From Verrucomicrobiia bacterium (GTDB lineage Bacteria; Verrucomicrobiota; Verrucomicrobiia; Limisphaerales; JAKPVM01), in the NCBI GenBank assembly GCA_049968335.1, contig JBMFQZ010000009.1, forward strand, positions 54,295 through 118,294: 64,000 nucleotides of DNA, written 5' to 3'. The position numbers and the translations under genes were made by a program. Shown piece by piece: positions 54,490 through 64,000 of the stretch (the first letter of the stretch is position 1; each line of letters begins with the position of its first letter). The notes under the pieces are model-generated. The model did no database searches and was not told the DNA's origin. It saw only the letters and a list, made by a program, of their open reading frames with translations.

Positions 54490-55575
54490 TCACCCAAGTT
54501 TCTCCGGTATCTCTTTCATCGGTCCCATCCATTTCAACTCGCGTTCAATGTCATCGTGCATCTGGTATTTTTTTGCGACATCGGCAATCTTCGCGCCGCG
54601 GACTACGATGTTTTCCAGATTCGCGTTGCCGAGACCTGAGTTTGCGCAAAAGTTCAGATACCCCACCCATTCGGGATTAATCCCCATAACCTCAATCCCG
54701 ACGCGATCGGCGGCGATGTAATCTGTAGAGGCAATAGCGATTTTTGATTGAACAGGCTTGCCGTTATTCGGTCCGTTGCCTTCCATACCTTCCCATCCGT
54801 CAATAACGGTTGCGCCCCAGTATGGTTTGAGCCGCTGCGCCGTAAGGGCGATATCAACGTGGGTCTGGCGAACCCCACCGTGGAAGACCCGTTTATCATT
54901 CCAGCGCTGCGTATCCTTGCGCGCGTTATGAAGCGGCGCTCCAAGAGCCATATTTTTTATTGAAAGCGTCGCCACCACTGTGTTGTGCGTCTTTAAAATT
55001 GCCGAGCAGATAATAAAGGCGTCCGGGTCTAACAACCGCGCTGCGAGGCGGATTGGAACGAAATGCAGGTCTCCGTTAAGGATGCTGTGAGTCTTGTATT
55101 TTCCTTCTTCGTTTAAATCAACAAGCTGAACATCCAGCGGTTTGAATTCCTGCGGAAGTTTTACATAGCCAAAATTCTCGTATCCTTCAATTGTGTATCC
55201 AGCGCTGGATTCGGCGATTAACACCGGACCTTTGAAACGAGGCGCAAGAAAATCAAGAATCCCCCTCAAACAATCTGCGTGGGTTGACGCAAGCTGATTG
55301 CGCGTATTAACGATGTTTGGTTTTATAATTACGTATTTCTTGGTTTTAAGTTTTGGCATTATCTGGTCTTCGATAGCAAGCAACGCCTCGTAGGCATTTT
55401 TCCGACGACTATCGCCGTTAGCAATGGAGACAATTGATTTTTCAATCGCGGGTTGCTCTGATGCCGCCGTGTTGCCTGCCCCTTGTTGTCCGCGAAGCAG
55501 CGCCGTCGTCGCGGTAAAAGCGGCAGCGGATAATATAAAATGCCGTCTTGATACCTTGTGTTCGCCGATGTTCAT
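54490..55575 (-). CDS. DUF362 domain protein with twin-arginine signal
   Basis: Tat-like SRRHFILSAAAFTATTALL plus the DUF362 hallmark YVIIKPNIVN. Confidence 0.8.
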   Translation of the reverse strand: MNIGEHKVSRRHFILSAAAFTATTALLRGQQGAGNTAASEQPAIEKSIVSIANGDSRRKNAYEALLAIEDQIMPKLKTKKYVIIKPNIVNTRNQLASTHADCLRGILDFLAPRFKGPVLIAESSAGYTIEGYENFGYVKLPQEFKPLDVQLVDLNEEGKYKTHSILNGDLHFVPIRLAARLLDPDAFIICSAILKTHNTVVATLSIKNMALGAPLHNARKDTQRWNDKRVFHGGVRQTHVDIALTAQRLKPYWGATVIDGWEGMEGNGPNNGKPVQSKIAIASTDYIAADRVGIEVMGINPEWVGYLNFCANSGLGNANLENIVVRGAKIADVAKKYQMHDDIERELKWMGPMKEIPEKLG

Positions 55576-55723
55576 ATTCCAAGTTTACACAAATCTTTTT
55601 TAATTTAAAAGAATTAAAATTCCAGGAATAAAATCGCAAGAGTATCCCCCCGTTTTTACAAAAAATTACAGAAATGTTTTAAATATTTATATAAGTAAGC
55701 CACTCGGCAGTATCCGCTGATTT

Positions 55724-56440
55724 CTACCTCTTATCCTTAGATAGTCTCTGCAATAAATTTTCAAATAGCCTGTTAGAAATATTTTTATATTCAGGAAAAA
55801 TAACCTTTGTATCAGACAAAATTTTTTCCGGATTTATTATCGTGTTGAGGGCTCTAACTTCTTCCTCATAACCGATCAACCATTCACGGATTGAAACATC
55901 ATCCAGTTCAAAGTGGCATTGAAATCCATAAACATTAGGCTTAAAGCGAACAATTTGATTCTTGCACAAGTCTGAGCTTGCTAACAAAACCGCATCCTCC
56001 GGAAGATCAAAAGTATCTCCATGCCAGTGAAAGGCGTAAAATCTTTCAGGCAGCCCTTGTAATACGGGGTCTAATGAAGCAACGTTTGTCAAATAAATTT
56101 CATACCATCCAATTTCAACCGCTCTGTTCTTGTAAACCGGAGCCCCTAAAGCCTTCGCAATTAGTTGAGCCCCTAAACATATTCCGACAATTGGAACCTC
56201 TGTTTTTAAAGATTTTTTTATATATTCTATTTCAGGCGCCAAAAACGGATATTTATCTTCCTCATTAACGCCCATCGGACCGCCTAAAACGAGTATGAAA
56301 TCATATTCTTCAGCAGATTTATCCGGAAATTCTCCCCGATCAAGATTAACTTCCTCTATATTCCATCCCCTCTGCCGCAAAAACTCACCGAGCATTGCGG
56401 GTCCTTCTAAACAAATGTGTTTTAACGCAAGTGCATTCAT
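55724..56440 (-). CDS. class I (type 1) glutamine amidotransferase
   Basis: MNALALKHICLEGPAML start, nucleophile elbow GICLGAQL, and HWHGDTF. The track ORF begins 13 codons earlier. Confidence 0.8.
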   Translation of the reverse strand: MNALALKHICLEGPAMLGEFLRQRGWNIEEVNLDRGEFPDKSAEEYDFILVLGGPMGVNEEDKYPFLAPEIEYIKKSLKTEVPIVGICLGAQLIAKALGAPVYKNRAVEIGWYEIYLTNVASLDPVLQGLPERFYAFHWHGDTFDLPEDAVLLASSDLCKNQIVRFKPNVYGFQCHFELDDVSIREWLIGYEEEVRALNTIINPEKILSDTKVIFPEYKNISNRLFENLLQRLSKDKR

Positions 56441-56663
56441 TTTAAAAATATTAATCAAAAAGTATTTTAAAACCTTCACTCCGACAATAGCAAAATTGTT
56501 ACCACTGAAATTCCACGAGCCATTACCAATTTGAACCAGAGATTGGATTTCAAAATACTATTCCCCATCGCCCTGATTATTATCCTTGAAACATTGCGTT
56601 AAAACTTTTACAAAAATTCTAAAACCGTTGCGCCGCAACAAAAGTTTATTGTTTTAAAATTTT

Positions 56664-58061
56664 ATGGGAAAACCGACCGACATTCAGGTTCGCGAAACTG
56701 CGCTCTATTTAATCCCGATTAAAACAAGGGTGCCGTTAAAGTTTGGCACGGAAACGCTCACATCCGTCACCTGCGCCCGCGTTCGCGTCACGGTCTCAGA
56801 CTCGCGCGGAAACAAAGCCATCGGCTGGGGTGAAACTCCATTAAGCGTCCAATGGGTTTGGCCATCTCAAATCTCTTACGATGAACGTCATAAGTCCCTA
56901 ATTGAATTTTGCAAACTCCTCGCTCGCGAGTGGCGACTCTTCCCGGAAAAAGGTCATCCGCTTGAACTTGGCAACGATTTTATCAAGTTCCGATTGCTGC
57001 CGCTTTTGGAACAGTTCAACCAGAATCGTCAGGAAAAAATGCCATATCTTGCCGCCTTGCTCTGCTGCTCGCCGTTTGATATCGCAATTCACGACGGCTA
57101 CGGCAACCTCGTTGGCAGACCTGTCTATGAAACTTACAATCCCGATTTTATGAATCGCGACCTTGCGGCTTTCATTGAAGCGTCGCCGGACGCAAATGTG
57201 AATTTTACATCCCGTTACCCGCACGAGTTCATAATCCCGCGACGCAATAGGATGAAGGCATGGCATCTTGTTGGCGGATTAGACCCGATTGACCCCTCCG
57301 ATTTAACCGGAAACGAACCATCAGACGGTTACCCCGTTCTGCTCCGCGACTGGATTCGCCGCGACGGACTCAAATGCCTGAAAATCAAACTCTGCGGAAA
57401 CGACGAAGGCTGGGACTGCGAACGGATTGTGCGCGTGGGAAAAATTGCGATTGAGGAAGGCGTGGACTGGTTAAGCGCCGATTTTAACTGCACCGTCACA
57501 ATCCCCGGCTACGTAAATAGAATCCTTGACAAACTCCGCGATGAAAATCCGCGCATCTACGGAATGATTCTCTACGTTGAACAACCGTTCCCGTATGAAT
57601 TGGAAAAATTCCCGATTGACGTCCGCAGCGTCTCAGCGCGTAAACCGCTCTTTTTAGACGAAAGCGCCCACGACTGGAAGATGATAAGACTTGGCAGGTC
57701 GCTCGGCTGGAGCGGCGTTGCATTAAAAACCTGCAAGACCCAGACCGGCGCCATACTCTCCGCCTGCTGGGCAGAAGCGCACGGAATGACCCTTATGGTT
57801 CAAGACTTAACAAACCCGATGCTCGCGCAGATTCCTCACCTTTTGCTCGCCGCGCATCTGAACACAATCATGGGCGTTGAAACAAACTCAATGCAGTTTT
57901 ATCCCGAAGCCTCCGCGCCGGAAGCGGCTGTTCACCCGGAAATTTACCGCCGCCAGAATGGAACCGTTGACCTCTCATCCATCAGCGGCAGCGGCTTCGG
58001 CTACCGCATCAACGAAATCAACCGCCCTCTGCCAAAACCTGCAGTTGAATACCGAGATTGA
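56664..58061 (+). CDS. enolase-superfamily enzyme (mandelate racemase/muconate lactonizing type)
   Basis: KxK motif (CLKIKLCG) and the metal-ligand series DxN (SADFN), EQP (YVEQPFP) and DES (LFLDESAHD) in canonical order. Substrate unknown. Confidence 0.75.
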   Translation: MGKPTDIQVRETALYLIPIKTRVPLKFGTETLTSVTCARVRVTVSDSRGNKAIGWGETPLSVQWVWPSQISYDERHKSLIEFCKLLAREWRLFPEKGHPLELGNDFIKFRLLPLLEQFNQNRQEKMPYLAALLCCSPFDIAIHDGYGNLVGRPVYETYNPDFMNRDLAAFIEASPDANVNFTSRYPHEFIIPRRNRMKAWHLVGGLDPIDPSDLTGNEPSDGYPVLLRDWIRRDGLKCLKIKLCGNDEGWDCERIVRVGKIAIEEGVDWLSADFNCTVTIPGYVNRILDKLRDENPRIYGMILYVEQPFPYELEKFPIDVRSVSARKPLFLDESAHDWKMIRLGRSLGWSGVALKTCKTQTGAILSACWAEAHGMTLMVQDLTNPMLAQIPHLLLAAHLNTIMGVETNSMQFYPEASAPEAAVHPEIYRRQNGTVDLSSISGSGFGYRINEINRPLPKPAVEYRD

Positions 58062-58565: not shown

Positions 58566-59891
58566 ATGAATAAAAATCGTATGAAGCGGGTTACCCGGCG
58601 AGAATTTTTGACCTCTGGCATTAAGGTGGCTGGCGTTGTTGCAATGCCTTTTATTATCCCGGGGTCAGCGCTCGGACTCAATGGAAGGATTGCCCCAAGC
58701 GAGCGAATCGTGATGGCGGGAATCGGGCTCGGCGGTCGCGGATTTTACGACCTTAGCGTAATGATCAACCAGAACGACGTCCAATGGGTGGCTGTTTGCG
58801 AGGTCACAAAGGGGCGACGGGAAGCCGCAAAAAAGTTTGTTGATGAAAAATACGGAAACAAGGATTGCGCCGTATACAGCGACTTGCGTCAACTCCTTGC
58901 CGAAAGAACCGACGTGGACGCCGTTTTGATTGCAACCGGCGACCGCTGGCATGCGCTGGCTTCCATCTGGGCAATGCGCGCAGGCAAAGATGTTTATTGC
59001 GAAAAACCGGCGTGTCTAACGATGGAGCAGGGAAAAATGGTTGTTGAAACCGCCCGCCGCTACGGCAGAGTTTACCAAACCGGCGCCCAACGGCTCAGCG
59101 AGCCGCCTCACGTCTATGCAATTGAACTTGCCCGCTCAGGACGACTCGGCAAAATCCAGACCATTTACGCAGATATCCGCTGGCGCGACGGCAACCGCCA
59201 CGACTGGCTTCCTGCCGAACCTGAACCGCCTAAAGAGGAACTTGACTGGGATTTGTTCATCGGTCCGTCTCCGTGGCGACCATTCAACCGCGGTTATCTT
59301 AATGGCGGATGGTATCACTTTTACGATCTTGCCACAGACGTTGCAATGTGGGGCGCCCACACAGTTGCACAGGCACTCGCCGGAATTGATAGAGAAAATC
59401 TCTCCTTCATTGAATTTGAATACTCTGGACCCGAGGCAAGCATCGTTACGCATCTTTCCAACGGCATCAAACTTATCCTTTATCGCAAACCCGGCTCTGT
59501 CTGGGAACCGTGCGAATACTGGCGCGGCGCTTGCGGCGAGCGATTTGACGGCACCGAAGGCTGGGCAGCCGCAGCCGACGGTTATTCAAAAACCGATGTT
59601 TCATCACCCGCTCTGCTGGAGGATTACAAAAAATTGCTTAATGAATACACAACGCGAACACAACGACCGCTTGATCACGTTCGCGACTTCCTTGACTGTG
59701 TAAAATCGCGCAGACAAACCGTGGCAAACCCCGATGTAATGTATCAATCAATGTGCATCTGTTTAGCGGCGGACATTGTGGGTCAGCTAAAGAGGAATTT
59801 AAAATTTGACCTGCGCAAGGCTGAATTTGTCGGCGACGAAGAGGCAAACCGCCTGCGCCTGCGCGCAATGCGAGCGCCGTATATTATATGA
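58566..59891 (+). CDS. Gfo/Idh/MocA-family oxidoreductase with twin-arginine signal
   Basis: Tat motif TRREFLTSGIKVAGVVAMPFI, Rossmann start VMAGIGLGGRG, and DVYCEKP block. Confidence 0.9.
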   Translation: MNKNRMKRVTRREFLTSGIKVAGVVAMPFIIPGSALGLNGRIAPSERIVMAGIGLGGRGFYDLSVMINQNDVQWVAVCEVTKGRREAAKKFVDEKYGNKDCAVYSDLRQLLAERTDVDAVLIATGDRWHALASIWAMRAGKDVYCEKPACLTMEQGKMVVETARRYGRVYQTGAQRLSEPPHVYAIELARSGRLGKIQTIYADIRWRDGNRHDWLPAEPEPPKEELDWDLFIGPSPWRPFNRGYLNGGWYHFYDLATDVAMWGAHTVAQALAGIDRENLSFIEFEYSGPEASIVTHLSNGIKLILYRKPGSVWEPCEYWRGACGERFDGTEGWAAAADGYSKTDVSSPALLEDYKKLLNEYTTRTQRPLDHVRDFLDCVKSRRQTVANPDVMYQSMCICLAADIVGQLKRNLKFDLRKAEFVGDEEANRLRLRAMRAPYII

Positions 59892-60013
59892 GTTTGGCAA
59901 AAGGCCACAGTAGTTTAAAAAATCTGCATATTTTTTAAAAATTATTGGCAATAACAATACCTCCAATCGTAACGCGAAATAATAAATCTATTTCTGATCG
60001 AATACCTTTTTAG

Positions 60014-60152
60014 CACAGGCATTCCTGCCTGTGGCACATTCGTCCTCGCCTGCACAGCAATCCCTACCTGCTGCTTCAGCGGTTTCACTTTCGCAGACGG
60101 AAAAGAGACAGACAGGAATGTCTGTGCTACCAACGCAGACAGGAATGTCTGC
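60014..60152. repeat. three short tetraloop hairpin repeats (repeat family 3)
   Basis: cacaggca-ttcc-tgcctgtg (60014-60033), acagaca-ggaa-tgtctgt (60108-60125) and gcagaca-ggaa-tgtctgc (60135-60152). The first is the inverse orientation of the other two. Confidence 0.7.
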
Positions 60153-61893
60153 GCTACCTTATGATTTAAAACGTTACTGCATTGAACATTCGCTATACGG
60201 TGTAGATATTGACCCCGGAGCAGTTGAAATCTGCAAATTAAGATTCTGGCTTTCTATGATCGTTGATGAAGAAGATTTTCACCACATTAAACCTCTCCCT
60301 AACCTCGATTATAAAATAGTCTGCGGAGATTCATTGTTGGGTGTTGAAAAGAATGTTTTAAATTGGCAAAGTTTCAATCAACTTGAAAAATTAAAATCTC
60401 AATATTTCAATGAAACAAATGCGTCAAAGAAACAGGAGTACAAAAAACAGATTGATGGATTGATTAAAGAAATAACAAAAGGACATACACAATTTGATTT
60501 TGAGGTTTACTTTTCTGAAGTTTTTCATAAAGATTCTAAATTCGACATCGTAATTGGAAACCCGCCGTATATCCAATTGCAAAAAGATGGCGGAAGACTG
60601 GCTAAACTTTACGAAAAGCAAAATTATAAAACCTTTGCCCGCACGGGCGATATTTATTGCCTGTTTTACGAAAAAGGAATACAATTGCTGAAAGACAACG
60701 GAATACTTTGCTACATTACCTCGAATAAATGGATGCGTGCAGGCTACGGCGAAAAACTGCGAAGCTTTTTTATGCAATACAACCCTACAACACTGATTGA
60801 TTTAGGACCAGGTATATTCGAAAATGCAACGGTTGATACTAATATTTTGTTGATACAAAAAACAAAAACACATAATAAGCAGCTTAAAGCCGTAACCCTG
60901 CAAAAACAAAACGATACGGTAAATATTGAACAACAATTACAAGAACGGGCTGTAATCCTTGAAAAACTTACCCAAGATGCCTGGTTTATAGGCAGTAGCG
61001 CCGAGCAGCAACTTAAAGAAAAAATAGAACGCATTGGAAAACCGCTGAAAGATTGGAATGTGAATATTTATCGTGGAGTATTAACCGGTCTTAACGAAGC
61101 CTTTATCATAACCAAAGAAAAGCGCAACGAGATACTTGCCAATTGCAAAGACGAAGATGAACGCCGCCGCACCGAAGCCATCATCAAACCCATTTTACGC
61201 GGAAGAGACATAAAACGGTATTACTACGAGTGGGCAGGGCTGTGGGTGATAGGAACATTTCCTGCATTATGTTTAAATATTGAAGATTATCCTGCAATTA
61301 AAAAGTACTTTTTAGACAATTTTGATATAAGACAATTAGAACAATCGGGCAAAAAATATCCTGAACTTGGTTTTGATGCACGCAAGAAAACAGGAAACAA
61401 ATGGTTTGAAACACAAGACCAAATTGCCTACTACCCCGAGTTTGAGAAGGAGAAGATTATTTACATTGAAATAATGACCGATAACTGGGAAGAAGGTTAT
61501 GAATTTCCATGTTACACTTACAAAAATGACACATGTTTTGTGCTAAATACAGCTTACATTATGACAGGAAAGAATTTAAAATATATTTTAGGTGTGTTGA
61601 ATTCAAACTTTGGGAGTTACCTTGTTAAACAACATGTAACTCAGCTTCAAAAAAGACAATTTAGAATGTTAGCACAATATGTTAACAATTTTGAGATTCC
61701 CCCCATCACGCCTGCCAACCAGCCCATTGTATCGCAAATAGAAGCACTGGTGGATAAAATCCTTGCAGCAAAGAAAGAAAACCCGCAGGCGGATACAAAA
61801 AATTTTGAAGAGGAAATTGACCATTTAGTTTATAATTTGTATGATTTAATACCAGATGAAATAAAGATAATTGAAGGAGGGAAAAAATTATGA
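60031..61893 (+). CDS. Eco57I-family N6-adenine DNA methyltransferase with TaqI_C-like target-recognition domain; N-terminally truncated (no AdoMet motif I), possibly a remnant
   Basis: YGVDIDPGAVEICKLRFWLSMIVDEE...LPNLDYKIVCGDSLLG, catalytic FDIVIGNPPYIQLQ (NPPY), and TRD block IYRGVLTGLNEAFII. The first ~45 codons (..RQTGMSVLPTQTGMSALP) are translated hairpin repeats, and the true start is unclear (in-frame ATGs at 60118 and 60145). The upstream gene ends at 59891, so there is no room for motif X/I. Confidence 0.75.
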   Translation: MAHSSSPAQQSLPAASAVSLSQTEKRQTGMSVLPTQTGMSALPYDLKRYCIEHSLYGVDIDPGAVEICKLRFWLSMIVDEEDFHHIKPLPNLDYKIVCGDSLLGVEKNVLNWQSFNQLEKLKSQYFNETNASKKQEYKKQIDGLIKEITKGHTQFDFEVYFSEVFHKDSKFDIVIGNPPYIQLQKDGGRLAKLYEKQNYKTFARTGDIYCLFYEKGIQLLKDNGILCYITSNKWMRAGYGEKLRSFFMQYNPTTLIDLGPGIFENATVDTNILLIQKTKTHNKQLKAVTLQKQNDTVNIEQQLQERAVILEKLTQDAWFIGSSAEQQLKEKIERIGKPLKDWNVNIYRGVLTGLNEAFIITKEKRNEILANCKDEDERRRTEAIIKPILRGRDIKRYYYEWAGLWVIGTFPALCLNIEDYPAIKKYFLDNFDIRQLEQSGKKYPELGFDARKKTGNKWFETQDQIAYYPEFEKEKIIYIEIMTDNWEEGYEFPCYTYKNDTCFVLNTAYIMTGKNLKYILGVLNSNFGSYLVKQHVTQLQKRQFRMLAQYVNNFEIPPITPANQPIVSQIEALVDKILAAKKENPQADTKNFEEEIDHLVYNLYDLIPDEIKIIEGGKKL

Positions 61894-63239
61894 AAAATAA
61901 AATTGATTTTGAAAAAGACAATATTTTGTTCATTAGCAATGAACAAATTTATATCGATGATTTTAAAAAAGACAATGATTATCACAGGCAAAAAATTAGA
62001 GAAAAAATTGAACCTTGGTTAACAGCTGTATTTCAAAGCGAACACTTATCTTTACTTGTAGGGTCAGGGTTGCCGATATCATTGAATTCTGTAAAAGTTG
62101 AAAATACCGAAAAAAGTACTAAATCCGAAGATAATAAAGATTCAACGGATAATGAAAATTCCATGATGAATAGAATTGAATTTGAAAATACAGCTTATAA
62201 AGATTTAATAAAAAATAAAGCCGATAAAGAAGCCAAGCAAATGGGGCGAGGTGAAGCAAATTTTGAAGATGATTTGCGTGTTGCTATTGAATTACTAAAG
62301 GGGTATGAAATATTAAATAATAGCCAAGAGCCCGAATCACTTAAGCAAGAAATAAATAAATATTTAAATCAACTCATTCAATCAATATTAAAAAATGAAC
62401 AAAACTTTTTTTCGAAACAAGAAACTTTGTTGATTCTGAAGAAATTTCTTTTAAGTTTCTCTGCACGCTCAGCAACACGGGATAGATTAAAAATTTTTAC
62501 AACCAATTACGATCGATTTATTGAATATGGACTTGATGAAGCAGGTATACTTACACTGGATAGGTTTATAGGCAAGTTAAAACCAATTATGCGGTTTCAT
62601 AAAATTGACCTTGATTATCACTATAATCCGCCAGGTATTCGGGGCGAACCTCGTTATGTAGAAGGCGTTGTAAGATATACAAAACTTCACGGTTCGCTTG
62701 ACTGGCAATTTGAAGATGGGAATATTGTTAAAATGCCTATTCCATTTGGAGCTGAAGTCGATGAAAAATATTTTAATAATCCATTTGATAAGGTTGTAAT
62801 TTATCCTAATTCTTCAAAGGCGGTAGAAACCTCTTTCTTCCCATACTCTGAACTTTTTAGAGATTTTTCAACTGCAATTTGTAGGCCTAATTCTGTGTTA
62901 GTAACCTATGGTTATGGATTTGGTGATTCACATATTAATAGAATTATTGGAGATATGCTTACTATTCCATCAACTCATCTGGTTATTATATCCTATGATT
63001 TAGCAAATAATCGTATTAAAAATTTCATTGAAAAATGCAATGAATCTCAATTAACTTTTTTGATTGGTGGAGAATTGGCAAATATTGAACATTTAACCAA
63101 TTATTATCTTCCCAAACCTGCTATTGATAGAATAACCGATAGACAGACAAAAATTCTTGAAAAAAGGAAATCAACACTTGAGAAAAAAGAAAATGATATA
63201 AATAATAATGATGGAGACATCAATGAAACAGAATTTTAA
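61890..63239 (+). CDS. SIR2_2-type sirtuin-like protein (defence-associated SIR2, partner of HerA)
   Basis: 449 aa with LLVGSGLPISL, IFTTNYDRFIEY (TTNYD), TKLHGSLDW and YGYGFGDSHINR, the hallmark order of SIR2_2 domains. ATG overlaps the MTase stop (ATGA at 61890-61893) and is preceded by ggaggg. Confidence 0.85.
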   Translation: MKNKIDFEKDNILFISNEQIYIDDFKKDNDYHRQKIREKIEPWLTAVFQSEHLSLLVGSGLPISLNSVKVENTEKSTKSEDNKDSTDNENSMMNRIEFENTAYKDLIKNKADKEAKQMGRGEANFEDDLRVAIELLKGYEILNNSQEPESLKQEINKYLNQLIQSILKNEQNFFSKQETLLILKKFLLSFSARSATRDRLKIFTTNYDRFIEYGLDEAGILTLDRFIGKLKPIMRFHKIDLDYHYNPPGIRGEPRYVEGVVRYTKLHGSLDWQFEDGNIVKMPIPFGAEVDEKYFNNPFDKVVIYPNSSKAVETSFFPYSELFRDFSTAICRPNSVLVTYGYGFGDSHINRIIGDMLTIPSTHLVIISYDLANNRIKNFIEKCNESQLTFLIGGELANIEHLTNYYLPKPAIDRITDRQTKILEKRKSTLEKKENDINNNDGDINETEF

Positions 63240-64000
63240 TGATATAAGAAATCAAGTGATAGGAACTGTAGAATTTGTTTCTTCCAGAGAGATAAAAGTA
63301 TTGCTTGAGATTGATGCGCCACAAAGTACTTCCATTAATACAGGGATACCACAATTATTTCCACGAATTAACGGTTTCTTACTGATACCAAATGAGGCAG
63401 GTGCTTTAATTGGAATGATTACTTGGATAGGTATAGAATATTCTGCCTATCCAAAGAGAAAAGGATATAAGGATTTTGACCTTGTTGATCTTCCTTTCCC
63501 ACTACGCAAACTTTCATTATCTCCATTAGGTATTTTAAAGGAAAAAGAAGATGGTTATGAGATAGAAAGAGGTGTTAATAGCTATCCATCGGTTGGAGAT
63601 ATTGTAATAATTCCAAGTAATGAACAACTCAAAGCCATTGTACAGAAAAAAGATGAAAATGCTAAAGTCAAAATAGGCAATTCACCGCTTGCTTCAAATG
63701 CTCCTGTTTTTGTTGATCCTGATAAAATCTTTGGGCGACATCTTGCAATTCTTGGGAACACTGGAAGTGGAAAATCTTGTTCTGTTGCAGGGCTTATTAG
63801 ATGGTCAATTGAAAGTGCTCAGAATGAAGTTAAGGATAATAAGGAGGTTAATGCTCGTTTTATTATCCTTGATCCCAATGGAGAATACGGAGAATGTTTT
63901 AATGACTTTGGAAATATAAAAAGATATGCAGTAAAAATAAGAGAGGATGAAAATATTCATCAACTAAAAGTTCCATCCTGGATGTGGAATAGCTGGGAAT
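63224..64000 (+). CDS. HerA-like (DUF87) ATPase, N-terminal 259 codons only; cut by window end
   Basis: Own translation from ATG 63224: MKQNFNDIRNQVIGTVEFVSSREIKVLLEID... (HAS-barrel-like), then FGRHLAILGNTGSGKSCSVAGLI (Walker A) and FIILDPNGEY. It overlaps the SIR2 gene by 16 nt, and ggag lies 6 nt upstream. It has no stop in the window, so it is missing from the ORF track. Confidence 0.85.

Follow-up and report, generated by a model that had tools for sequence, protein, structure and literature searches.

What remains of a methylase gene whose cofactor-binding half has been replaced by hairpin repeats, and what, if anything, is such a gene still doing at the edge of a defence island? The question is raised by a stretch of 64,000 nt from a Verrucomicrobiia metagenome-assembled genome (MAG; assembly GCA_049968335.1, contig JBMFQZ010000009.1, positions 54,295 to 118,294), referred to in its entirety as the window. 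Here an open reading frame (ORF) of 620 aa with a GTG start occupies positions 60031-61893 of the forward strand. Its product is identical to an NCBI protein (P0001, encoded on a 131,486-bp contig of a Verrucomicrobiia MAG) whose annotation reads 'Eco57I restriction-modification methylase domain-containing protein'. An initial annotation of the locus, made from the sequence, had proposed that the protein lacks its S-adenosylmethionine (AdoMet) binding N terminus, and that it is either a pseudogene created when the left end of the island was rearranged or a recognition subunit that serves without methylation. We propose, at a probability of roughly 0.7, that the ORF is the 3' stump of a gene for an Eco57I/MmeI-like N6-adenine methylase of the gamma class (~1080 aa; the methylase/specificity protein in a type IIG-like restriction system), and that the front of this gene was lost beside a REPtron, a gene for a REP-associated tyrosine transposase (RAYT) flanked by repetitive extragenic palindromic (REP) elements.

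Results

The ORF encodes the C-terminal part of a gamma-class methylase

The 620 residues fall into two parts, residues 1-42 being encoded by REP copies, in line with the initial annotation, which had described the 5' end as made of hairpin repeats, and residues 43-620 being native methylase sequence. The native part starts at PYDLKRYCIEHSLYGVDID and represents the C-terminal 578 codons (60157-61893, forward strand) of a ~1080-aa Eco57I/MmeI-like methylase, type IIG in PADLOC, to whose family members the stump is 55-70% identical. Pfam detects Eco57I (residues 54-258, E = 4.5e-45), N6_Mtase and TaqI_C (residues 386-553) in the ORF, the latter being the target-recognition domain (TRD) at about 61186-61689 of the forward strand. 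Motif II (YGVDID, 60196-60213, forward strand) starts exactly at residue 56, for which the initial annotation had given an approximate position, and motif IV (NPPY, 60559-60570, forward strand) starts at residue 177. The acidic residue of motif II, NPPY, motifs V-VIII and the TaqI_C domain are all present, and 60/60 invariant alignment columns of the family are retained. The view that the catalytic NPPY and the TRD are intact is borne out by these positions, by the Pfam match and by the fold match to CamA and BseCI described below.

Motifs II-VIII including NPPY, followed by TaqI_C, are what the window protein has in common with type IIG/IIL enzymes and Eco57I-family gamma-class methylases such as MmeI and BpuSI. 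It differs from them in the lack of the first ~530 residues together with motifs X and I, and on this comparison of sequences it cannot be an active member of the family. Homologs are found in the thousands, the full-length ones being 1050-1085 aa long. In five full-length relatives motif X (YYTPREIV) lies at residues 366-429 and motif I (DPAVGSGAF) at residues 428-521; motif II follows 46-57 residues past motif I where it was matched, and motif IV ~120 residues past motif II. The initial annotation had expected the AdoMet motif I to lie 30-100 residues upstream of the YGVDID block. One relative, P0005, is 68% identical to the window protein and reads ...GVYYTPREIVHYM...VCDPAVGSGAFPIGMMHEIVRLRHLLAEYLGEQAKPYDLKRHCIEKSLYGVDID.

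Neither motif X (YYTP) nor motif I (DPxxGxG, loose form included) was found by pattern search of the window ORF. The PADLOC profile PDLC03596 (type IIG) aligns residues 43-618 with profile positions 580-1146 of 1148 (E = 2e-198), leaving positions 1-579 of the profile without counterpart in the window protein, and in the alignment with CamA window residues 46-87 correspond to CamA 102-143, the first ~100 residues of CamA, which hold motifs X and I, being unmatched. An AlphaFold2 model of the window protein was built on 34 homologs, with a mean predicted local distance difference test (pLDDT) score of 72. In this model residues 1-41 are disordered (pLDDT <50), the first element is a helix at residues 43-53, strand beta-1 is absent and merely a short bridge stands at motif II, residues 43-110 reaching a pLDDT of about 70 only. 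Foldseek matched the model to CamA (E = 2e-21), M.BseCI, MmeI, PglX/BrxX and M.TaqI, the match to CamA and BseCI spanning about 600 columns; CamA, M.BseCI, M.TaqI and the PglX/BrxX proteins of BREX are the structural relatives of the stump.

No complete AdoMet fold appeared within residues 1-120, in the alignments or in the model, and the initial claim that cofactor binding has been deleted agrees with the alignment, the PADLOC coordinates, the CamA alignment and the AlphaFold model. Because beta-1, the glycine loop and motif X are absent, the stump would be dead as a methylase, and we infer from sequence and model that its product cannot bind AdoMet or methylate DNA by itself. Searches by tblastn over the 64-kb window, for the N-terminal methylase half as well as for a RAYT gene, gave chance matches only. 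Among the best 120 homologs, taken from a collection of 5.8 billion protein clusters, P0002 is the only one to have the same REP-coded N terminus.

The 5' end is composed of GTAG-type REP elements

GTAG-type REPs, the REP doublets forming hairpins (REPINs) and REPtrons were reportedly described by Nunvar in 2010, by Bertels and Rainey in 2011 and by Ton-Hoang in 2012. GTAG-type REPs are imperfect palindromes of 20-40 nt that carry the tetranucleotide GTAG (or GTRG) at one end. Their defining layout is a GTAG head, a short stem and a 4-nt loop (PMC3733652), and the repeats at the 5' end of the ORF are elements of this type, GGTAG-CACAGACA-TTCC-TGTCTG. The '+' copy, TTAGCACAGGCATTCCTGCCTGTG, lies at 60011-60034 on the forward strand and has a degenerate TTAG head, an 8-bp stem and a TTCC loop; the GTG start at 60031 falls within its 3' stem. 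The spacer of the REP doublet (60035-60107) contains GCACAGCAATCCCTACCTGCTGC, a REP-like hairpin that has decayed, along with a small GC hairpin at 60068-60082 and a terminator-like match. Two copies on the reverse strand follow. The first '-' copy (60108-60131; reverse complement GGTAGCACAGACATTCCTGTCTGT, with GTAG head and hairpin) lies in the ORF frame, where it encodes QTGMSVLP and gives an in-frame ATG at 60118, and the second (60135-60158; reverse complement GGTAGCGCAGACATTCCTGTCTGC) directly abuts the native methylase and holds an in-frame ATG at 60145. Read on their own strand, both are GGTAG-C[A/G]CAGACA-TTCC-TGTCTG, with a perfect 6-8-bp stem and a 4-nt loop.

Together, the '+' copy and the first of the '-' copies make up an inverted pair (22 nt, 91% complementary; arms 60011-60032 and 60108-60129), which gives a REPIN-like long hairpin, and the region folded as single-stranded DNA has a minimum free energy of -34.3 kcal/mol (z = -5.55). 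The 16-nt core CAGRCAGGAATGYCTG is present in three copies against 0.10 expected, a number reached in 0/100 shuffles. Further REP copies were not found in the 64-kb window, even with a loose hairpin pattern.

GTAG REPs occur in the Planctomycetes-Verrucomicrobia-Chlamydiae (PVC) superphylum, a GTGG head being reported from Opitutus terrae (Di Nocera et al. 2013, PMC3733652). Besides this occurrence, the window repeats share with GTAG REPs and REPINs the GTAG head with a perfect hairpin, the presence of both orientations, the long REPIN-like hairpin and, in a sister locus, a putative cognate RAYT flanked by the same repeats; they differ in that the three copies in 64 kb all stand at one site and that the window has no RAYT. 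Intragenic REPs in frame are on record, as are REP-coded N-termini of ORFs, which are probably untranslated and are described as an effect of annotation (PMC3733652). CRISPR-like or tandem coding repeats are ruled out by the two orientations, the GTAG heads and the putative cognate RAYT. A host-wide REP that merely lies upstream of the gene was also rejected, there being no other copy in 64 kb and the order of the variants fitting the REPtron flank of the sister locus.

The REP core was scanned for in 185,579 species genomes (596 Gb) and was present in at least 120 genome stretches (L011-L130), the phyla among the matches listed being mainly Planctomycetota, Verrucomicrobiota, Acidobacteriota, Ignavibacteria and neighbours. 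About 500 chance occurrences of a 16-mer are estimated for 596 Gb, and single matches prove nothing. Among the matches listed, 130 of 165 carry CCAC, CTAC, TCAC or TTAC 2 nt past the core, corresponding to the heads GTGG, GTAG, GTGA and GTAA, and inverted doublets within 150 nt stand at 26 loci; these head bases and doublets therefore identify the genome matches as real REPs. Other MAGs bear the family at several loci (JAAFIV01, for example, at L033, L041, L052 and L053), and in Verrucomicrobiales chromosomes it is typically found downstream of genes (L021, L030). The core CAGACA[GA]GAATGTCTG, with GTGG or GTAG head, was seen in Zixibacteria, KSB1 and others as well, an unusually broad range for one REP, and often as inverted doublets 30-70 nt apart (L021 7834-7905, L030 4655-4725 and 4860-4930, and L019 2965-3095, for instance).

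A sister locus retains the RAYT gene and the motif I side

P0002 is a protein of 647 aa, 70% identical to the window protein, that starts with seven tandem MSGLPVEPTQTR followed by LPYELKRHC. The 6.4-kb contig that carries it, L001, keeps what the window lost, namely the motif I side of the methylase and the RAYT gene. Its order is as follows: the motif I region (KICDPAVGSGAFPIGMMHEIVKLRQLLAVYI; reading KICDPAVGSGAF...LLAVYI), two '+' REPs, a Y1_Tnp ORF that is the RAYT, two more '+' REPs, seven tandem 36-nt '-' REPs, then PYELKRHC with the methylase C-part, then SIR2 and finally HerA. The best NCBIfam match of the L001 RAYT is REP_Tyr_transpos, at 63.7 bits, which is below the 80-bit cut-off, with 30.5 bits for IS200. 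Its relatives number >2000, many of them labelled RayT by the Joint Genome Institute (JGI) and many from Kiritimatiellia, Victivallaceae, Opitutaceae and Lentimonas. In the extended relatives inspected the flanks read TDIPVC and QTGMSV, which are one REP translated on two strands; the peptide QTGMSV, found in the window ORF, also flanks many RAYT homologs.

The last '-' REP and the junction are equal base for base in the two loci, joining ...GCGCTACC to TTATGATTTAAAACG in the window and ...GGGTTACC to TTACGAATTAAAGCG in L001. Upstream of it, the '+' REP of the window at 60011-60034 matches the last '+' REP on the right of the L001 RAYT (L001 884-907; core 20/20 identical), and it is the rare GGCA/TGCC variant that likewise stands ahead of the '-' array in L001. 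This sequence agreement supports the hairpins as the right flank of a REPtron once inserted in the methylase gene, an origin that would explain both the breakpoint and the repeat-coded 5' end. At the far left of the contig, the motif I region (DIKVCDPAVGSGAFPIGMM...) is in part duplicated in tandem (L001 1-100 and 140-230). The two copies have diverged and the first holds a stop codon, a state that is either a contig-end assembly artefact or additional damage to the N-part.

REPtrons lie in frame inside related methylases

Relatives of the methylase carry REPtrons within their reading frames. In L138 (Ignavibacteria MAG GCA_029907405.1) an intact gene for a phospholipase D (PLD)-SNF2 protein is followed by the methylase N-part, which continues in frame via ...GSYYTPREIVDYMVNESLIAYL... 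into REP-coded repeats in tandem (EGSTTLDINNISRTQ). The repeat array is interrupted by a scaffold gap of 100 N; beyond it the same repeat resumes in the same reading and leads to the RAYT domain, motif I and the rest of the methylase. To judge from its sequence, and the scaffold gap apart, L138 4145-8861 would appear to be a single ORF, about 1560 aa in length. P0064 (L131, 5584-9069) shows the L138 architecture, in frame on both sides, and is only 60% identical to P0085, the L138 protein. The insert of L131 and L138 consists of REP-coded tandem repeats, the RAYT domain and a REP-coded linker, and its site is just after motif X. P0128 passes from the methylase N-part, through motif X, in frame into a RAYT with the REP type of the window. 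In P0122 the methylase mid-part and the RAYT are followed by just the last ~15 methylase residues, a REPtron-associated internal deletion that is analogous to the deletion in the window. A RAYT-in-methylase case of the P0128/P0122 type is listed also at L137 474-1406, and L131 5555-5582, an example of another kind of damage to genes of this family, is a 14-nt tandem duplication (TACGAAGACAAATT twice) in the N-part.

The methylase N-part of L001 is equally in frame with its RAYT (183-944), and the methylase-C frame (845-2869) is open from 845 across the two '+' REPs on the right (NTDTLVCESNTGIPACEPSQTRMSGLP...). The two frames differ by no more than one 1-nt shift near 858-860, where the RAYT gene ends; the shift may be a true mutation, or it may be a consensus error, the contig being a repeat-rich one from a MAG.

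These cases raise the possibility that a methylase gene may go on working with a whole REPtron inserted in frame and translated, the insertions being kept in either of two permissive surface loops, that after motif X or that between motifs I and II. We put this forward tentatively, as an idea that has the odds against it. A host gene that stayed functional would explain how one junction came to be shared at a synonymous divergence (dS) of about 1 and a ratio of nonsynonymous to synonymous divergence (dN/dS) of 0.18. If it holds, the RAYT would be made as a section of the host protein or would at times excise or delete DNA, and such events would switch or destroy the restriction system and yield stumps like that of the window. 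REPtrons as known are intergenic, whereas here the element lay within a coding gene, and in relatives the frame of the host gene runs through the REPtron as a whole and not just through REPs. Such nesting, seen in related loci only, was not found described in the searchable literature; a survey of Y1 transposases had discarded 'unexpectedly long proteins' as fusions or annotation errors (PMC6006769).

RAYTs of the same clade were also seen between hsdS and an AlbA_2 gene in a type I hsdM-hsdS-...-hsdR operon (L136 5001-5783) and between hsdM and SIR2-HerA (L006 1124-1696), and two RAYT homologs are labelled 'type I restriction enzyme R subunit' by JGI. L134, where the RAYT lies in a polysaccharide gene cluster, is a counter-example, and the sample is too small and too biased for an association of RAYTs with restriction.

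The stump is undecayed and mosaic

Comparison of the stump with the L001 C-part gave 74% protein identity, a dS of 1.02 and a dN/dS of 0.18, both ORFs being intact. The window protein is off the family consensus at 2/154 highly conserved positions, among the lowest counts in a comparison of 34 sequences. The adjacent SIR2 and HerA genes (window 61890-63999 versus L001 2866-4978) are 90% identical, with a dS of 0.26-0.31. Synonymous divergence between window and L001 climbs toward the SIR2 5' end over the first ~60 codons, a gradient that suggests a recombination breakpoint inside the 5' end of SIR2.

The methylase C-part is itself a mosaic. Over residues 171-290 and 561-618 the window protein and P0002 are mutually closest; over residues 111-170 P0002 is closest to P0005, and over residues 361-462 it is the window protein that is closest to P0005 (93%). 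In the TRD, the window protein is 80% identical to P0019 and 29% to P0002. One junction is present in two alleles of very different age, which is hard to square with the death of the gene at the arrival of the REPtron.

The island border and the SIR2-HerA pair

The last host-type gene before the island encodes a Gfo/Idh/MocA oxidoreductase (58566-59891, forward strand; Pfam GFO_IDH_MocA and C2 domain; GC about 50-55%), and the ORF list and Pfam agree with the initial annotation on its end at 59891. Between this gene and the REP cluster lies an AT-rich spacer (59892-60010) with an A/T palindrome at 59914-59945; compared with all fetched loci by blastn-short, the spacer gave no match. The intergenic frames had been described as full of stops, and stops are indeed present in 3/3 forward frames over 59892-59997, the ORF's own frame being open only from 59998. 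GC content is 42-48% in the first 60 kb and drops to 32-36% beyond about 60.1 kb, and the AT-rich island has its left border where the head of the '+' REP lies (60010/60011). No tRNA gene was found at the island border, no matches to known plasmids or phages were found, and promoter and terminator scans around the junction did no better than on shuffled sequence. Elsewhere in the window, positions 55400-56800 have a GC content of 33-41% and a GC skew down to -0.32, upstream of an enolase-superfamily gene and flanked by genes of ordinary composition.

The candidate starts of the stump ORF are the GTG in the REP stem and the in-frame ATGs 60118 and 60145 in the REP loops, with AGGA directly against the ATG, and as far as the sequence goes none of them is a credible translation start. 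At its other end the ORF runs into a SIR2 gene (61890-63239, forward strand; Pfam SIR2_2; PADLOC PDLC04079, E = 2e-165), whose ATG overlaps the methylase stop (ATGA, 4 nt) in the window and in L001; with NCBIfam SIR2_antiphage it scores 130.7 bits versus a cut-off of 500. The 5' part of a HerA (DUF87) ATPase gene follows (63211-64000, forward strand; Walker A GNTGSGKS; PADLOC PDLC04098, E = 2e-119) and leaves the window at its end. SIR2-HerA (Nezha) is a two-gene anti-phage system (PMC11472057). Adjacent genes for a SIR2-like NADase and a HerA ATPase are present here, with synteny to L001, L006 and L008. Like Nezha, the window has SIR2_2 and DUF87/HerA genes that are adjacent and overlapping; the difference is that the pair is read through from the methylase stump, whose stop lies over the SIR2 start. 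SIR2-HerA relatives adjoin unrelated genes, hsdM and a RAYT in L006 and a TIR-KAP NTPase in L008. Going by these gene neighbourhoods, SIR2-HerA is an autonomous defence pair of which the methylase is not a conserved partner, and we know of no methylase-stump partner of SIR2-HerA. Given the stop/start overlap with SIR2, expression of SIR2-HerA may still be affected by transcription, and perhaps by translation, of the stump.

The full-length methylases are without SIR2-HerA downstream in the loci examined. Those in L002, L131 and L138 pair with a PLD-SNF2 helicase gene that is absent at the window locus, and P0012 in L004 has neither PLD-SNF2 nor SIR2-HerA as a neighbour within the stretch fetched. 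As SIR2-HerA relatives and full-length methylases have other neighbours, a conserved three-gene system of methylase, SIR2 and HerA was rejected. The ~1100-aa PLD (HKD) nuclease-SNF2 helicase gene precedes the full-length methylase at L002 4702-8001, L131 1139-4483 and L138 706-4107, and gives PADLOC 'HKD+Snf2' C3a139 and DrmD-like matches. The working system looks like a pair of a helicase-nuclease gene and a methylase/specificity gene, not a single-chain type IIG enzyme. Identification of the PLD-SNF2 partner with the Hma Snf2-nuclease was discarded, the Hma paper describing a different system. Downstream of the short methylase forms found in L132 and L133 stand genes for SLFN_AlbA_2 and HATPase_c_4. 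In L132 a frameshift lies in a T/A homopolymer run just past motif I (1790-1830), and a reading of the short family members as designed split genes was set aside, the one examined, L132, being a plain frameshift in this run.

Discussion

How would a methylase gene come to open with the flank of a transposase gene? Of the two explanations offered by the initial annotation, the remnant left by rearrangement at the left end of the island is the one we favour, and the recognition subunit found no positive support. In the ancestor, a REPtron (RAYT flanked by GTAG REPs) would have sat in a variable loop that links the helix following motif I to the 'PYxxKR' helix ahead of motif II. The window lineage would then have lost everything left of the last '+' REP, namely the left REPs, the RAYT and ~530 N-terminal codons in which motifs X and I lay, host DNA (44-48% GC) becoming joined to that REP at 60010/60011. 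The breakpoint falls exactly at the REP head, which makes it probable that the deletion arose by REP-REP recombination or by RAYT cleavage and rejoining. Left over would be the REP cluster of the right flank, read by the gene caller as a 42-residue N terminus ahead of 578 native codons. The deletion is likeliest to be recent relative to a long purifying selection on the REPtron-bearing gene, and such recency is the likeliest reason for a reading frame that is still perfect; selection against polar nonsense mutations upstream of the overlapping SIR2-HerA may add to its intactness.

Several observations weigh against this scenario. The stump is without pseudogene decay, and the sole other locus with the same junction stands at a dS of about 1.0 with a dN/dS of 0.18; such conservation would be very unlikely had the gene been dead since the insertion. 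The scenario needs either long function of the REPtron-bearing gene or mosaic recombination that imported selected sequence, and the former is indirectly backed by the in-frame nested REPtrons of L138 and L131. It is plausible that REPtron-bearing methylases stayed open and selected for long, and that the window deletion came later and recently, its junction being inherited. Furthermore, the 4-nt stop/start overlap with SIR2 is conserved in window and L001 and leaves room for a retained role; the search for the N-part and RAYT spans the 64-kb window, so that copies may exist elsewhere in the genome; and the join of host and island lies within a repeat cluster, where assemblies can be chimeric.

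A retained role would mean that the truncated protein, by its TRD and what remains of the catalytic-domain scaffold, recognizes or binds DNA as a partner of the SIR2-HerA effector, without methylation. The intact ORF, its dN/dS of 0.18 and the 2/154 conserved positions changed would all fit with this, as would the ATGA overlap kept in both loci, the in-frame ATGs that the REP loops provide at 60118 and 60145, and a TRD swapped between alleles (80% to P0019 versus 29% to P0002) as in active specificity genes. Against it, the SIR2-HerA relatives L006, L008 and L005 are without a methylase partner, one other truncated protein only occurs among the best 120 homologs, and L001 still has its N-part and RAYT, so that the truncated form is not a conserved unit; moreover, a Rossmann domain would probably not fold once its central beta-1 is gone, residues 43-110 having a pLDDT of about 70, and no candidate start has usable Shine-Dalgarno spacing. 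Taken together these points leave a retained recognition role quite unlikely. The undamaged stump would suit yet another arrangement, to which we attach hardly any credence, in which it would form a split methylase in trans with an N-terminal fragment that bears motifs X and I and is encoded beyond the window. Members that are split or short are common in the family (P0007/L132, P0017, P0030, P0033), but tblastn found no N-part in the 60 kb upstream, the split form examined, L132, is a T/A-run frameshift, and we know of no viable gamma-class methylase architecture with the Rossmann sheet split between beta-1 and beta-2.

The remaining alternatives concern how the junction was made. The join at the REP cluster could be an assembly chimera, in which case the host-type 60 kb and the AT-rich island would come from different places or from organisms sharing the REP, and the real methylase gene would be complete, with or without a REPtron. 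The GC step of about 10 points lies exactly in the repeat cluster, the same REP family is present in Verrucomicrobiales chromosomes (L021, L030), the '+' REP and first '-' REP of the window could alone be a host REPIN, and tandem REP arrays do break assemblies, as the 100-N gap in the L138 array illustrates. However, the shared repeats are just 22-27 nt long, less than the k-mer length that final assembly graphs usually have, hosts of higher GC commonly carry AT-rich defence islands, and the rare GGCA/TGCC '+' variant precedes the '-' array in L001 too, which suggests that the whole cluster came from the REPtron flank; we regard a chimera as very improbable. A last alternative touches the history only: the junctions of window and L001 might stem from independent, target-specific REPtron insertions into diverged alleles. 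IS200/IS605-family Y1 transposases are target-specific. Independent insertion would accommodate the dS of about 1.0 in the C-part versus about 0.3 for the adjacent SIR2 and HerA, the C-parts that are mosaic relative to the family, and the different REP/RAYT pairs found at a second shared site after motif X (P0064/L131, P0085/L138 and P0128). It is nevertheless unlikely, in view of the same REP variants in the same order ('+' GGCA, then '-' GACA) joined at the same nucleotide, and of the many short target sites that an AT-rich 3.2-kb gene offers; REPtrons are, besides, reported to be unable to self-propagate (PMC3733652).

Under the deletion scenario that we favour, the annotation of P0001 would need correction to a catalytically incompetent stump with a repeat-coded false N terminus. 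The stump should not be counted as a methylase or restriction system when a defence repertoire or a methylome is predicted, the real defence unit at the locus being SIR2-HerA. The feature belongs to known kinds, a truncated restriction gene and a GTAG REP, and the locus offers a dated snapshot of REP/RAYT elements remodelling defence islands. REPtrons are generally seen as immobile, domesticated and extragenic, and RAYT activity is hard to demonstrate in vivo. Finding REPtrons repeatedly in frame in restriction-methylase genes, and at a deletion breakpoint, suggests that they can act on coding DNA, and further suggests that restriction genes may tolerate or attract them. If confirmed, this would provide a natural system in which RAYT activity can be studied.

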